Below, one piece after another: positions 8,506 through 19,933 of a DNA stretch of 55,135 nucleotides (positions are counted from its first letter, which is position 1; every line of letters begins with the position of its first letter). This stretch comes from a virus: the UHGV virus genome UHGV-0258472. The stretch is one strand, 5' to 3'. Position numbers and translations under genes: made by a program. The notes beneath the pieces were generated by a model. That model did no database searches. It was given only the letters and a program-made list of their open reading frames with translations, and was not told where the DNA came from.

Positions 8506-8664
8506 AATGCTCTCTCCTTTTCAGGTGATTTCTACGCATTTCAGCGCTGCCGGATTTTTAAAGAGCATTTTGTTTGCTTGAAGTATACAAAATGGATACG
8601 TGCTAACAAGGTGTAAAGCGCCATTATGTGACATTCATCACACAATGACGCCATTTTGTAAACT

Positions 8665-9453
8665 TCAGTCCGGCAAAACGCGGTTGAGCGTAGTACGATT
8701 GATGGCCCGGTCGTTAGCCAGGAATACAGCACGGGCGAAGCCACGCGGCGTTAGTGAGCGGATCATCTTTGTTCGCTTTGATTTTCCGCCTAACTTCGCG
8801 TGCTGCTTACTGTCTTCCCATTCATCTGGCATCGGCACAGGACGGAATAGCGGCTGCTTAAATCCATTCCCGCACCAAATACAAGTTTTCTTCGTGTAGG
8901 CGTCGCGGTCGGCAATGTATTCCGGGAAAGCGGGATGTTTATCATCTTCCGGCAGGTAGCCACCGTAAGCGCAAGGATTGAAGATAAAATCCGGTTTACG
9001 CCATAACGTTGACAGCACGCCAACAGGATTTTCAACCATCCACGGCACGTTATACATGTTAGCCAGAGATTCAACCAACATTGCGTTTCTTGCCGCCTTA
9101 TTCTGAAAACAAGGATCTTTTCTGTATTTATCAACGAACCAACGAGCGCCGGACACAGCAAGATCATCACACGGAGGAAAGCCCAGGATAATGTCAGGAT
9201 CTGGATATACAGACAATTCAGGTGAGAACATTACCAGAAAATGGCTATCAATCCAGACGTTAACATATTCAATATTTGGATGAATTATTTTTACACCGTC
9301 ATAATCACCGTGATTAGCGCCGTCATAGTTGAAGCAATAACATTTATAACCAGCGTCCGCCCAATCTTTAACGGCGTACCCGCTGCCGTCGTACAGCGAC
9401 CATACCACCCAATTTCTAAGCCAATTATTTAACCAATGTTTAGCCCTGCTCAT
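8665..9453 (-). CDS. putative DNA (cytosine-5)-methyltransferase-like protein
   Basis: Motifs resembling C5-MTase motif I (LYDGSG), IV (GFPPCDD, PC-type) and VI (ENPVG); ATG at 9453. Confidence 0.5.
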   Translation of the reverse strand: MSRAKHWLNNWLRNWVVWSLYDGSGYAVKDWADAGYKCYCFNYDGANHGDYDGVKIIHPNIEYVNVWIDSHFLVMFSPELSVYPDPDIILGFPPCDDLAVSGARWFVDKYRKDPCFQNKAARNAMLVESLANMYNVPWMVENPVGVLSTLWRKPDFIFNPCAYGGYLPEDDKHPAFPEYIADRDAYTKKTCIWCGNGFKQPLFRPVPMPDEWEDSKQHAKLGGKSKRTKMIRSLTPRGFARAVFLANDRAINRTTLNRVLPD

Positions 9454-9953
9454 TTTCTGCCCTCAAACGTGAAATAGCGGCGCATGATGATAGTAATCAC
9501 CGTTACCGCTGCCATTTTTGAGATGAATTGCATAGCTGATATTTCCGGCATAAATGCCATAAACGATAGCGTCGGGAAAATTAACGCATCACCTATGGCG
9601 GACGCTATATTTGCAGGCCAACGTTTAGAATCAAAGTCACCAGGCAAAACCCGGTAAACGCCGCCAGAAATAAGCGCACCGGAAACAACCGCGACAAATG
9701 ACGCGATCGCCACCATTCCGGCGTCGTAATTTATCAGCACAGTGATTGCGCCAGCGGCGGCGCATGTTGTAGCCGACCATTTCAGGCCGCCGTCATATAA
9801 CAGGAAGTCACGGATCATCATATTGACACACACGGCGGCTACCGTGGTGATCGGAATTACCAACGGGCCGCAATGGTTAACAATAAGATTGATGATCACG
9901 AAAACGGCGACATAAACGCAGGCTAATAACCTGTCAATTGTCACCCTTTCCAT
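9450..9953 (-). CDS. integral membrane protein (multi-pass)
   Basis: ORF-track start 9995 is TTG; ATG at 9953; several long hydrophobic stretches. Confidence 0.45.
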   Translation of the reverse strand: MERVTIDRLLACVYVAVFVIINLIVNHCGPLVIPITTVAAVCVNMMIRDFLLYDGGLKWSATTCAAAGAITVLINYDAGMVAIASFVAVVSGALISGGVYRVLPGDFDSKRWPANIASAIGDALIFPTLSFMAFMPEISAMQFISKMAAVTVITIIMRRYFTFEGRK

Positions 9954-10425
9954 TTTTATGGTACCCCGCCGCGCGTAATAGTGATTCGTTGTCAAACTTC
10001 ACATCAAGCCTATTTGAAAGGCTACCATTTAGAGTTATCCCGCTGGCGTCGATCGTGCCGCCGGATATAGTGACATTCTTACAGCCGCAATTTAACGGCA
10101 TATCAAAAACAGCCTGTTTCTTTCTTTGTTCTTCCTCCCGATCCGTTAATATCTGTTCTGCCTTAAGCGCGTTATAAGCAATAAGGTCTATAAGAGTATC
10201 GAGCGGGTCGCTACCATTGCTTAAAATGGCCTCTAATCGCGCCTCCTTGAGACAAATTAGTAGATCCCATACATCAAGCGGGGTTAAATTTGTCCCCTTC
10301 TTAGCGTTGTAAATAGTGGCTATTTTTGGCGCTGATTTTTCTTCTTTTCGATCGTATCCGTTTTGTTCCCCTCTTGCCTCAATAGTTTCAGCCGCAAGTC
10401 TTAGCAATTCAGCCGCTTTACTCAT
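9934..10425 (-). CDS. hypothetical protein
   Basis: Internal ATG at 10425 just downstream of the Dam-like gene stop. Confidence 0.45.
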   Translation of the reverse strand: MSKAAELLRLAAETIEARGEQNGYDRKEEKSAPKIATIYNAKKGTNLTPLDVWDLLICLKEARLEAILSNGSDPLDTLIDLIAYNALKAEQILTDREEEQRKKQAVFDMPLNCGCKNVTISGGTIDASGITLNGSLSNRLDVKFDNESLLRAAGYHKNGKGDN

Positions 10426-10957
10426 TTTCTGCACCTCTTGCATATAGCTCTTTACGTGTTATCTGCGTGAAAATACATTCATGTCTGCACCGTGGATGCC
10501 AGATCAAAAACAAGCTACCCTTATTGTTTCCGCTTGCTGGTTTCCCTGTCGCAGCATTGATAAACGCCAGCCGCCCGCGCGTGATTAATCGGCATTCGTT
10601 TGCCGTCTCCACGCCGTTCATAAACCAGTTAACAGAGATGTCGGCTGGCAACAACATTACACAGCCAATATGATTTCGGTGATGTTCCATCGCTGCCTTA
10701 TCTACGAATGGCCCCGGATTCGAATATGGCGGATTAAGCCAGACATACTCACCAGGCATCGCCACCGCTCCCCACGGATAATGCAACGTGTCCATTTCTT
10801 CGGTTATATATCGCGGAACTAATGCGTTTGCCTTGTTTGCCGCCACATCCGCGACGAATTCGAATTCCCGATCCATTCCTCTAAAAACTGGTTTTGGCGT
10901 TTGCCATAAGTCCTTTATTTCTTTTGGCGTATGGCTTCCGCCGTAATCATTTTTCAT
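10418..10957 (-). CDS. phage Dam-type DNA N6-adenine methyltransferase
   Basis: Catalytic motif NPPY (WLNPPYSNPGPF); size typical of phage Dam family; ATG at 10957. Confidence 0.75.
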   Translation of the reverse strand: MKNDYGGSHTPKEIKDLWQTPKPVFRGMDREFEFVADVAANKANALVPRYITEEMDTLHYPWGAVAMPGEYVWLNPPYSNPGPFVDKAAMEHHRNHIGCVMLLPADISVNWFMNGVETANECRLITRGRLAFINAATGKPASGNNKGSLFLIWHPRCRHECIFTQITRKELYARGAENE

Positions 10958-19009: not shown

Positions 19010-19933
19010 ATGCGCAAGTTAACACATGATGAACATGTTGCGGCTATCGCTAAGGTTAATCATGATGTCGAAGTGCTTGGGGAAATTGTTAATAACAGGA
19101 CAAAAGTATCCTGCCGCTGCAAGGTTTGCAGTCACGAATGGTCGGCTAGACCTTACAATCTTAAAAGCGGTCACGGCTGCCCGAAATGCGCCGGAAAGAT
19201 GAAATTATCACACGAAGAACAGGTTGCCGCTATCGAGAAGGTTAATTCTGATGTCGAAGTGATTGGCGAAATAATAAACGGCTATACAAAAGCATTATGC
19301 CGCTGCAAAGTTTGTAATCACGAATGGTCGGCTAAACCTAACAACCTAAAAAACGGGCGCGGCTGCCCGAAATGTAAAGGTTTAAAAATCGCACAAAGAC
19401 GAACATTATCACACGAAGAACATTTATCCGCTATCACTAAGGTAAATCATGATATTGAAGTATTGGCAGAAATAATAAACGATAGGACAAAAGTATTATG
19501 TCGATGCAAGGTTTGTGATCATAAGTGGTCGCCTAGACCTTATGCTATTAAAAGCGGGCAAGGCTGCCCGAAATGTGCGAAACACGGTTTTTTGTCACAC
19601 GATTTCGGCAAACTTTACATCATGGTTGATGATCCTGAAGTGCCTACACAAATGAAAATCGGCGTAAGCGTTAATGAGAACAAGCGAAGAAATCGGGTAT
19701 TAAAAAGCGCACATAAATCAGGCGTTAGAATCCCTGATTTATGTGTCGTGAAAACGTTAGAAGGTCCAACCGAAAATATCCATGAATTAGAAAGCACGAT
19801 GCATAAATATTTCAGCAATTATAAAATTAACTTTCCTGTAAAATTTGATGGCAGCAATGAGTTTTTCTATTACAGGCCTGAAGTATTCGACATGGTAGAA
19901 GAAGCATATAAAGAGGTTGTTTGCTGCCAATGA
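19010..19933 (+). CDS. protein with three tandem zinc-ribbon repeats and a C-terminal T5orf172/GIY-YIG-like domain
   Basis: Three ~60-aa repeats each with CRCKVC ... GCPKC; C-terminal KLYIMVDD ... KIGVS ... NEFFYY resembling the GIY-YIG/T5orf172 pattern; ATG 19010 with SD aaggag. Confidence 0.6.
   Translation: MRKLTHDEHVAAIAKVNHDVEVLGEIVNNRTKVSCRCKVCSHEWSARPYNLKSGHGCPKCAGKMKLSHEEQVAAIEKVNSDVEVIGEIINGYTKALCRCKVCNHEWSAKPNNLKNGRGCPKCKGLKIAQRRTLSHEEHLSAITKVNHDIEVLAEIINDRTKVLCRCKVCDHKWSPRPYAIKSGQGCPKCAKHGFLSHDFGKLYIMVDDPEVPTQMKIGVSVNENKRRNRVLKSAHKSGVRIPDLCVVKTLEGPTENIHELESTMHKYFSNYKINFPVKFDGSNEFFYYRPEVFDMVEEAYKEVVCCQ

Follow-up and report, generated by a model that had tools for sequence, protein, structure and literature searches.

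Two orphan DNA methyltransferases flanking a DUF6378 gene and the gene of a membrane protein of probable YhhQ/QPTR type in an mEp021-like coliphage

Gene content and genomic setting of the cassette

The window, that is, the whole stretch of 55,135 nucleotides analyzed here (viral genome UHGV-0258472), is an mEp021-like temperate phage of E. coli. Between positions 8665 and 10957, its minus strand holds four overlapping genes, which encode a Dam-type adenine methyltransferase, a DUF6378 protein, a small membrane protein, and a C5-cytosine methyltransferase (Table 1). Each of the three junctions shows an overlap, of the ATGA type in two cases (positions 10422-10425 and 9450-9453), and because of these overlaps the four genes are taken to form one operon. 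A scan for promoters and terminators across the cassette gave no signal above chance. Purifying selection acts on each of the four genes (dN/dS 0.04-0.19). On one flank, the cassette is bordered by genes for NinF-like, NinG, and RusA proteins, and on the other by small ORFs without a Pfam or PADLOC match. The region probably represents the accessory ("nin-like") section of a delayed-early rightward operon in a temperate coliphage of the mEp021 group.

An earlier sequence-only reading of this DNA had described two methyltransferase genes flanking a membrane protein gene, and these three ORFs and their motifs all lie where it had placed them. The membrane protein gene is indeed located between the two methyltransferase genes, but it is not the only one there, as the DUF6378 gene had been missed.

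Table 1. Location of the cassette genes and of the motifs discussed in the text (positions in the window).
Feature	Position	Strand	Evidence
Phage Dam-type DNA N6-adenine methyltransferase, 179 aa	10418..10957	-	PF05869, TIGR01712, phrog_111, PADLOC orphan methyltransferase
NPPY catalytic motif (motif IV) of Dam, residues 75-78	10724..10735	-	Read from sequence
DUF6378 protein, 163 aa	9934..10425	-	PF19905, 29.7 bits (cut-off 27.1)
Small multi-pass membrane protein, 167 aa, predicted diverged member of the YhhQ/QPTR (Vut_1, PF02592) family	9450..9953	-	Profile searches, hhalign
Short phage C5-cytosine DNA methyltransferase ("Dcm-like", phrog_757), 262 aa	8665..9453	-	
Motif I (AdoMet binding), LYDGSG, residue 20	9379..9396	-	Aligned to DNMT3B "LFDGIATG" by profile HMM
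Motif IV, FPPCDD, residue 92, predicted catalytic Cys95	9163..9180	-	Aligned to DNMT3B "SPCNDLS"
Motif VI, ENPVG, with Glu141	9019..9033	-	Equivalent to E128 of K42 Dcm
KKTC (K188, K189), in the short conserved region replacing the target-recognition domain	8881..8892	-	Equivalent to K175/K176
RSLTPRG, motif IX-like segment	8740..8760	-	Match to canonical motif IX suggested by sequence resemblance only

The same cassette is carried by mEp021 (gp30-gp33, MH706966.1), by five other mEp phages (mEp010, mEp013, mEp044, mEp515, and mEp554), by MagusPhagus, and by one diverged contig, and it is found in 35 of 5,426 complete E. coli genomes. In the mEp021 group and MagusPhagus, the four genes appear in the order and genomic position observed in the window, upstream of the genes for NinF-like, NinG, RusA, and Q proteins. 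These cassettes are 86-93% identical to that of the window at the nucleotide level, and the differences are allelic, the largest one being located in the C-terminus of the DUF6378 protein (69-72% amino-acid identity). The diverged contig retains the identical four-gene order, even though its proteins share only 52-65% identity with those of the window.

In the mEp021 record, the four products are labeled "putative DNA N-6 adenine methyltransferase", "hypothetical protein", "putative membrane protein", and "putative DNA cytosine methyltransferase". As this record already names these functions, the presence of the methyltransferases is an ordinary finding; in the paper describing the mEp phages, the cytosine methyltransferase receives only a passing mention. 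The YhhQ/QPTR-family identity of the membrane protein, in turn, is absent from all public annotations of the cassettes of the mEp021 group and MagusPhagus.

The Dam-type adenine methyltransferase

The assignment of the first gene to the phage Dam-type N6-adenine methyltransferases, originally made from its NPPY motif, has been confirmed by profile searches. The protein matches PF05869 over almost its entire length (E 2e-51, 174.4 bits with a cut-off of 28.1, residues 7-176 on profile positions 1-167 of 169), and exceeds the threshold of the TIGR01712 equivalog model (140.9 bits, cut-off 97.05). It also matches the PADLOC "orphan methyltransferase" models. Homologues are present in 1,862 of 50,697 phage records, and the comparison with mEp021 yields a dN/dS of 0.06. 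The full-length match and the NPPY motif are shared with the PF05869/TIGR01712 Dams of Stx-converting phages, Sf6, and T1-like phages, which, like the protein studied here, are small (~180 aa), solitary, and encoded in the phage early region. However, the identity to these enzymes is only 37-44%.

The reaction product is predicted to be N6-methyladenine and the target is most likely GATC, on the basis of the family name and of reports on relatives. M.EcoVT2Dam of prophage VT2-Sa, a putative relative, has been reported to target GATC. This sequence occurs 297 times in the window against 272 expected, so that it is not depleted, which is compatible with GATC specificity although not diagnostic of it.

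A placement of the non-specific adenine methyltransferases of the Hia5/Hin1523 type in PF05869, which would undermine GATC specificity, was rejected, since those enzymes are Dam/DpnM-like proteins of ~280 aa with DPPY and FxGxG motifs.

The C5-cytosine methyltransferase

The protein encoded at the other end of the cassette had been proposed to be C5-cytosine-like from segments resembling motifs I, IV, and VI, and this proposal has stood up well. Profile searches, the check suggested for both enzymes, were successful for Dam in the families mentioned above, while for the 262-aa protein they gave a mixed outcome: it matches phrog_757 (E 1.2e-88, residues 3-255) but not PF00145, for which zero matches were obtained even at E 10. 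Sequence searches of Pfam, NCBIfam, and the PDB with this protein returned nothing. PF00145 is matched by 15 of the 31 homologues of the family (best E 1.3e-6), and the family profile retrieves from the PDB only weak DNMT3B matches (E 0.13). Since direct sequence searches came up empty, a fold comparison was needed, and it revealed a C5-methyltransferase fold, with DNMT3A/B, the prophage enzyme 3g7u, and M.HhaI ranking above Dnmt2. By its fold and catalytic motifs, the 262-aa protein is a C5-cytosine DNA methyltransferase. Its sequence identity to the catalytic domain of DNMT3A/DNMT3B is just 13-17%, and the regulatory domains of these proteins are absent. As this genuine DNMT3-like enzyme goes undetected by PF00145, annotation relying on Pfam alone will miss it; the family of short Dcm-like proteins of the phrog_757 type accounts for about 3% of phage records.

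The catalytic motifs are intact. Residues G23, S24, P94, C95, E141, N142, P143, R152, and K188 are invariant in the family, P94 and C95 in all 31 members compared, and C95 corresponds to C82 in both K42 Dcm and tonijn gp41. In the RSLTPRG segment, five residues (R232, S233, L234, T235, and R237) do not vary, and P236 and G238 are almost invariant. The canonical motif VIII (QxRxR) is not recognizable, and the target-recognition region is very short. The WRKPD sequence, which contains the invariant R152, may replace motif VIII, and RSLTPRGFARAVFLAN resembles a compressed version of motifs IX/X, with ~75 residues between both. The PCDD sequence, which had been regarded as unusual, was given too much weight: in this very large phage family, whose consensus reads PCTD, close relatives have either D or T behind the Cys, and DNMT3 shows PCND. 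It is a lineage variant of the PCTD of the family, parallel to the PCND of DNMT3.

An experimental link to the activity of this protein is provided by K42 Dcm. It appears to be encoded by a gene of the tonijn type, judging from a length of 711 bp, from matching residue numbers, and from a 99.7% identical gene annotated in BASEL; tonijn gp41 is encoded by a 711-bp gene and has C82, E128, K175, and K176, in full agreement with the length and residues given for K42 Dcm. The window protein is 58% identical to tonijn gp41, and both belong to phrog_757 and share the DNMT3-like fold. The PPC Cys, the ENP Glu, and the KK pair of the window protein are found at equivalent positions in K42 Dcm and in the enzyme of the Warwickvirus-type Drexlerviridae (tonijn gp41, FritzSarasin/Bas04). 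The positions that were mutated in the K42 enzyme (C82, E128, K175, and K176) correspond to C95, E141, K188, and K189 of the window protein. In contrast, the window protein exhibits an N-terminal extension of 13-18 residues, a short insert after motif III, PCDD instead of PCTD, and a longer C-terminal tail.

It has been reported, from LC-MS, that K42 Dcm raises 5mC on Ec86 msDNA, while the quadruple mutant, which includes K175/K176 as predicted substrate-binding residues, does not. By analogy with this homologue, the window enzyme would also form 5mC. The CCWGG specificity of K42 Dcm was assumed from that of E. coli Dcm, a mutation of the msDNA site being the only support for it; in the window, CCWGG is not avoided (124 observed, 126 expected). 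In addition, the Dcm-like C5 methyltransferase of the K42 type triggers retron Ec86, so the C5 gene probably exposes the window phage to Ec86-type sensors, as reported for K42.

The failure to match PF00145, together with the availability of Cx-SAM in E. coli through CmoA, leaves some room for functions other than plain 5mC formation, namely a CmoX-like carboxymethyltransferase using Cx-SAM, a Dnmt2-like RNA methyltransferase, or an inactive DNA-binding relic. We regard this group of readings as extremely unlikely. Published CmoX candidates were required to hold an SPPC motif and the Cx-SAM-binding Arg (Arg350), and most of them are associated with CmoA and usually with an amide ligase, whereas the motif in the window is FPPC and neither cmoA nor a ligase is annotated in the MagusPhagus or mEp021 records. 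The rank of Dnmt2 below the DNA methyltransferases in the fold comparison argues against an RNA methyltransferase, the invariance of all catalytic residues and a dN/dS of 0.10-0.18 argue against a relic, and the K42 homologue made 5mC on DNA.

The DUF6378 protein

Homologues of the DUF6378 protein have 163-170 aa and start at the ATG that overlaps the dam stop codon, an alternative upstream ATG being located at position 10443. Its first ~100 aa are conserved and helical, while the last ~60 aa are hypervariable. Relaxed Pfam searches returned DUF6378 alone, a profile search of the PDB gave no meaningful match, the AF2 model was unusable (pLDDT 45), and three mentions of DUF6378 were found in the literature, all of them incidental. 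As a guess, its four predicted helices and conserved acidic residues (E13, E16, E61, D76, and D80) might correspond to an all-alpha NTP-pyrophosphohydrolase of the MazG-like type.

Orphan status and proposed role of the methyltransferases

No restriction endonuclease was found near either methyltransferase, in agreement with the sequence-only reading. As no cognate nuclease is present, both enzymes are considered orphans, a status that the matched PADLOC models also indicate for Dam. The pairing of the two families is commonplace, as Drexlerviridae-type phages of Escherichia and Klebsiella are rich in both. By themselves, the two enzymes add to two of the commonest families of phage methyltransferases, and their significance is small.

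We consider it probable that these two orphan methyltransferases (Dam and the DNMT3-like C5 enzyme) serve mainly in anti-restriction, with the DUF6378 protein and the transporter as passengers. According to this proposal, the region would provide two solitary AdoMet-dependent DNA methyltransferases during lytic growth. The Dam-type enzyme would form N6-methyladenine, most likely at GATC, and the short DNMT3-like enzyme would form 5-methylcytosine, with Cys95 of the PC motif acting as the nucleophile and Glu141 of the ENP motif protonating the ring. Both enzymes may methylate the phage DNA during its replication at a higher rate and to a greater extent than those of the host, in such a way that the progeny would be pre-protected against restriction systems that cut unmethylated sites, while the DUF6378 protein and the YhhQ/QPTR-type transporter would be co-transcribed passengers. 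The frequencies of GATC and CCWGG, neither of which is avoided in the window, are in line with this proposal.

An alternative is that these enzymes are mainly epigenetic or physiological regulators, by means of Dam control of phage promoters, replication, and packaging, or by reprogramming host expression. Regulatory roles of phage and bacterial Dam enzymes are known in other systems, and the absence of GATC depletion in the window also favors this possibility. Moreover, GATC and CCWGG are methylated by the enzymes of the usual hosts in any case, which makes additional protection often redundant; as E. coli K-12 hosts possess Dam and Dcm, the benefit of the phage enzymes is conditional. In the BASEL study of Drexlerviridae, the presence of these methyltransferase genes was not linked in any simple way to resistance against restriction. 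Nevertheless, the genes are found in a lytic delayed-early operon and not in a position expressed by the lysogen, and several 6-bp palindromes are strongly avoided in the window, such as CTGCAG (0 observed, 7.5 expected), GATATC (1 and 16.7), and CACGTG (0 and 8.6). This avoidance indicates restriction pressure on the genome, and a mainly regulatory role is judged improbable.

The membrane protein of probable YhhQ/QPTR type and its genomic context

The intervening multi-pass membrane protein had been called unusual. It is indeed unusual, but for a reason that the letters alone could not reveal, since it appears to be a diverged transporter of the YhhQ/QPTR family (PF02592, COG1738) encoded in a phage without DpdA. 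The protein shows 5-6 hydrophobic segments, and six transmembrane helices are noted in the mEp021 record. Its match to PF02592 is below the threshold (12.5 bits, cut-off 27.2), yet residues 13-157 align to profile positions 6-149 of 152. A profile search gathered 263 representatives (E to 1e-15), several of which exceed the Vut_1 cut-off, with 35-53 bits. When a 46-sequence profile was compared with E. coli YhhQ by hhalign, a probability of 92% was obtained (E 6e-7), while a shallow profile of 7 sequences failed (probability 0.6%). These profiles point to a diverged member of the YhhQ/QPTR family, with a predicted role as a transporter. The homology to E. coli YhhQ (QPTR), an importer of preQ0/preQ1, extends over nearly the whole length, although the window protein is ~55 residues shorter. 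The substrate varies even among the characterized members of this family.

Phage VUT proteins paired with DpdA, like those of Pectobacterium phage PEAT2 (gp18/gp19), Acinetobacter phage AB3P2, and Escherichia phage Opt-719, are 28-35% identical to the window protein, and these mini-VUT proteins, which correspond to phrog_4899, have a similar size (~160 aa). In five other phage contexts, the mini-transporter gene adjoins a gene for a DpdA-like transglycosylase, identified as such by phrog_887 and GenBank annotation, as a PDB profile search with the partner proteins gave zero matches. In PEAT2 and Opt-719, the DpdA-like gene is located immediately downstream of that of the transporter, in the slot occupied in the window by the C5 gene. 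No DpdA/TGT homologue was detected when four DpdA-like (phrog_887) proteins were compared with the whole window by tblastn (best E 0.067), and TGT domains were neither found in the early-region ORFs nor annotated in MagusPhagus. No constant partner of the transporter was found in metagenomic contigs, whose contexts are mixed and many of which are too short. The close coupling of the transporter and DUF6378 genes between those of both enzymes is left unexplained by the orphan-methyltransferase model.

It could be argued that the four proteins form one functional module, in which an imported precursor of a base or cofactor (e.g., 7-deazaguanine) is used, together with the DUF6378 protein and/or one of the two methyltransferases, in a DNA modification that is more elaborate than simple methylation and does not require DpdA. 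The overlap of the genes at every junction, the conservation of their order in the diverged contig, and the position of the mini-transporter next to DpdA-like genes, with the C5 gene in the slot of the latter, are in line with this idea, and so is the fact that the transporter gene is the most constrained of the four (dN/dS 0.04). Furthermore, the closest relative of the transporter outside the mEp group is encoded two genes away from an N6_N4 methyltransferase. However, that methyltransferase is missing in one of three contigs, and the conserved order is confined to a single phage lineage, so that shared ancestry explains it. The transporter is found in only 21 phage records, while the methyltransferase families are present in well over a thousand each, the C5 gene of tonijn has no adjoining transporter, and K42 Dcm expressed alone makes plain 5mC. 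Such a module is therefore very unlikely, and passenger status for the transporter and the DUF6378 protein is preferred.

What the passenger proposal leaves unexplained is that a phage lacking DpdA keeps a strongly constrained transporter gene, overlapped by a C5 gene where some other phages place DpdA. There is little reason to expect that the importer, possibly together with the DUF6378 protein, works with the flanking enzymes in a DpdA-free modification or in precursor salvage, feeds a DpdA system of the host or of a co-resident element, or boosts host tRNA queuosine during infection; if true, this would represent a new phage use of a deazaguanine-precursor transporter. The small surprise of this region is hence the presence of a predicted transporter of the queuosine-precursor type that, despite strong purifying selection, is found without the DNA-modifying partner that accompanies it in other phages.

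Organization of the methyltransferase cassette

The sequence-only reading proposed two solitary DNA methyltransferases, one Dam-like and one C5-cytosine-like, flanking a membrane protein gene, and this core interpretation is right. Both enzymes come from very large phage families, and the pair itself is ordinary; these annotations are already carried by both families and by the GenBank records of the mEp group. What is added here to the existing annotation is firm support for the C5 enzyme from its fold and from published work, a DUF6378 gene that had been missed, and the recognition of the membrane protein as a predicted YhhQ-family transporter without DpdA, which is a modest curiosity.

All the ORFs and motifs of that reading were found where it had placed them. 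However, the cassette holds four genes instead of three, all on the minus strand, and the membrane protein gene is not the only one between the methyltransferases, being separated from dam by the DUF6378 gene. The stop codon of dam overlaps the ATG of the DUF6378 gene (ATGA), the ATG of the membrane protein gene precedes the DUF6378 stop codon by 20 nt, and an ATGA overlap is found again between the stop codon of the membrane protein gene and the ATG of the C5 gene. Because there are overlaps at all the junctions, the four genes constitute a single operon. A scan for promoters and terminators inside the cassette gave no signal above chance. Purifying selection acts on each of the four genes (dN/dS 0.04-0.19 versus mEp021 and MagusPhagus). 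Among 5,426 complete E. coli genomes, 35 carry the cassette, in every case as part of the chromosome.

Locations of the cassette genes and of related features
Feature	Record	Location	Strand
Four-gene cassette	Window	8665-10957	-
dam	Window	10418-10957	-
DUF6378 gene	Window	9934-10425	-
Membrane protein gene	Window	9450-9953	-
C5-methyltransferase gene	Window	8665-9453	-
Intergenic region downstream of the C5 gene	Window	8506-8664	
307-aa early-region protein	Window	19010-19933	+
Cassette match, E. coli N921 (H133)	NZ_CP176484.1	2620737-2623354	
Mini transporter and DpdA-like genes	L015	4004-5229	
Mini transporter and DpdA-like genes	L016	3282-4474	
Mini transporter and DpdA-like genes	L017	3989-5292	
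Mini transporter and DpdA-like genes	L010	3-1237	
Mini transporter and DpdA-like genes	L009	471-1276	
P0133-type transporter and N6_N4 methyltransferase genes	L006	5001-7258	
P0133-type transporter and N6_N4 methyltransferase genes	L008	265-2534	
DUF6378 domain alone	L003	5217-5516	

The cassette is preceded by small ORFs, among them a homologue of mEp021 "ipe", and followed by the NinF-like, NinG, RusA and Q genes. The intergenic region downstream of the C5 gene corresponds to the TERM_4 position in the mEp021 record and to the place of a second nutR site described downstream of the cytosine methyltransferase gene (PMC11893012); a simple terminator scan called no site in it. On the chromosome of E. 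coli N921, the cassette match exceeds the query length by about 320 bp and covers an annotated 'HNH endonuclease signature motif containing protein', which suggests a homing-endonuclease insertion in the cassette of this prophage.

Over a 2.9-kb stretch around the cassette, nucleotide identity is 86-93% with Escherichia phage MagusPhagus and six mEp immI phages (mEp021, mEp010, mEp013, mEp044, mEp515 and mEp554), the latter being Nus-dependent, non-lambdoid temperate coliphages (PMC11893012). The genomes of these phages (53-55 kb) are about equal in size to the window (55,135 bases), which also shares with them its early genes (Q-like antiterminator, RusA, NinG, ERF, SSB, S24 repressor, DnaB-type helicase and integrase). 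Adjoining the replication genes, a 307-aa early-region protein shows an unusual architecture, with treble-clef zinc-finger/CapR-homology repeats (DUF4379, CapR) and a T5orf172/MUG113 (GIY-YIG-like) domain.

The C5-cytosine methyltransferase

Searches of Pfam, NCBIfam and PDB sequences with the 262-aa C5-like protein gave no match. The protein is nonetheless assigned to phrog_757 "DNA methyltransferase" (E 1.2e-88). Its homologues number more than 7,730 in a large protein collection, and 1,515 phage records encode homologues, among them those of Drexlerviridae and rV5-like phages, where the usual annotation is C5 or Dcm-like methylase. In an alignment of 31 family members, half of which show a weak PF00145 match, the invariant positions are G23 and S24 (motif I), P94 and C95 (motif IV), E141, N142 and P143 (motif VI), R152, K188 and an RSLTPRG block. 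The AlphaFold model built from this alignment (mean pLDDT 85) retrieves as top Foldseek matches in the PDB the catalytic domains of DNMT3A and DNMT3B (E about 4e-6), and the family profile aligns motifs I and IV to DNMT3B ("FDGSG...PPCTDLAVS" versus "FDGIATG...SPCNDLS"). The PCDD motif, which had been regarded as unusual, is present but must be considered a lineage variant, since D and T alternate after the PC cysteine among close relatives and the family lacks the canonical Gln at this place, as does DNMT3.

Functional data are available for a similar protein from K42, a KarlJaspers/Bas06-like Drexlerviridae phage, in which mutations escaping retron Ec86 fall in a 711-bp "Dcm-like C5 cytosine methyltransferase" gene (10.1101/2023.08.16.553469, preprint). 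According to the same preprint, LC-MS detects an increase in 5mC on msDNA when K42 Dcm is expressed, a C82A/E128A/K175A/K176A mutant is inactive, and the AlphaFold model superposes on DNMT3A, while the CCWGG specificity was assumed from host Dcm, with mutation of the msDNA site as its sole support. The link to K42 is provided by length and residues: gp41 from tonijn (Warwickvirus, 51.6 kb) is also encoded by exactly 711 bp and holds C82 in FPPC, E128 in ENPV and K175-K176 in KKTC. A 99.7% identical gene, also annotated "Dcm-like", is found in the BASEL phage FritzSarasin. The C5 protein of the window is 58% identical to tonijn gp41, the equivalent residues being C95, E141, K188 and K189.

The Dam protein and the role of the pair

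The 179-aa Dam protein, with NPPY at residues 75-78, scores 174 bits against PF05869 (cut-off 28) and 141 bits against TIGR01712 "phage N-6-adenine-methyltransferase" (cut-off 97), and PADLOC places it among the orphan methyltransferases; judged by its sequence, it is a textbook phage Dam-family protein. Relatives occur in 1,862 of 50,697 phage records (tblastn), with identities of 42% to those of Stx-converting phages and Sf6, and 37-41% to those of T1-like Escherichia and Klebsiella phages. GATC is a plausible target by analogy with M.EcoVT2Dam from an Stx prophage, for which this specificity has been reported. Non-specific Hia5-type adenine methyltransferases were considered as family members and dropped, as their published description places them outside.

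As had been proposed, there is no restriction endonuclease nearby: the cassette neighbours include no nuclease-like partner and gave no PADLOC matches. Several 6-bp palindromes are strongly avoided in the window with respect to Markov expectation (CTGCAG, 0 versus 7.5; GATATC, 1 versus 16.7; CACGTG, 0 versus 8.6), while GATC and CCWGG occur at expectation. This pattern is circumstantially consistent with a restriction-pressed phage that relies on methylation at both site types, and anti-restriction is the best-supported role that we infer for both enzymes. The BASEL study found no simple relation of such methyltransferase genes to restriction resistance. CTAG (22 versus 72.5) and GGCC (127 versus 208) are also low in the window, and GTATAC, previously noted in a recurrent motif, is enriched (18 versus 10 expected).

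A predicted YhhQ-family transporter without DpdA

The membrane protein falls in phrog_4899, listed as unknown, and is described in public records as hypothetical or "putative membrane protein"; only 12 close homologues were found. It matches the whole Vut_1 domain (PF02592, YhhQ/QPTR queuosine-precursor transporters) below threshold, as do seven of eight relatives. A profile search recovered 263 relatives among 1.84 billion representatives, several of which exceed the Vut_1 cut-off (35-53 bits). A shallow profile gave no alignment with E. coli YhhQ; a 46-sequence profile aligned over 142 columns (92% probability, E 6e-7). From these matches, the membrane protein is predicted to be a roughly 160-aa "mini" member of the YhhQ/QPTR family.

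Relatives with 28-35% identity are encoded in 14 other phage records (tblastn), some as "VUT family protein". In five independent contexts (Pectobacterium phage PEAT2, Acinetobacter phage AB3P2, Drexlerviridae phage Opt-719 and two metagenomic contigs), the mini transporter gene abuts or overlaps a gene for a 243-262-aa DpdA-like protein (phrog_887, "queuine tRNA-ribosyltransferase"). In contrast, the whole window holds no DpdA-like gene (best E 0.067, tblastn), and the position directly 3' of the transporter, occupied by that gene in PEAT2 and Opt-719, is taken by the C5-methyltransferase gene. One may reasonably infer a past swap of modules, with another anti-restriction enzyme taking the place of DpdA, but such a swap would not account for the retention of the transporter, whose dN/dS, the lowest of the four genes (0.04), denotes strong purifying selection. 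Candidate roles are boosting queuosine in tRNA, supplying a host DpdA, or transport of a different substrate. YhhQ homologues have been reported in some phages with no correlation to any modification group (Hutinet et al. 2019), and the mEp-type lineage is a clear example.

The closest relative outside the mEp group (P0133, 45% identity) belongs to a different temperate phage, where an N6_N4 (PF01555) DNA methyltransferase is encoded two genes downstream of it; a third contig (L007) lacks this methyltransferase gene but is collinear in all other respects. A 115-aa metagenomic ORF (P0129) combines a precomputed PF05869 hit with 92% identity to the C-terminal half of the transporter. Its two matches suggest that in some relatives a deletion or frameshift may have joined dam directly to the transporter gene, with DUF6378 removed.

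The DUF6378 protein

The predicted structure of the DUF6378 protein is of low confidence (pLDDT 45), and a PDB profile search and relaxed Pfam searches yielded no informative remote matches. Conserved acidic residues on its predicted helices (E13, E16, E61, D76 and D80) permit only a guess at a MazG-like pyrophosphohydrolase. In the copies from E. coli prophages, a helical N-terminal part of ~100 residues is nearly invariant and is followed by a C-terminal part of ~60 residues that is hypervariable in sequence as well as length. A diverged relative of 99 aa consists of the DUF6378 domain alone, without the C-terminal tail.
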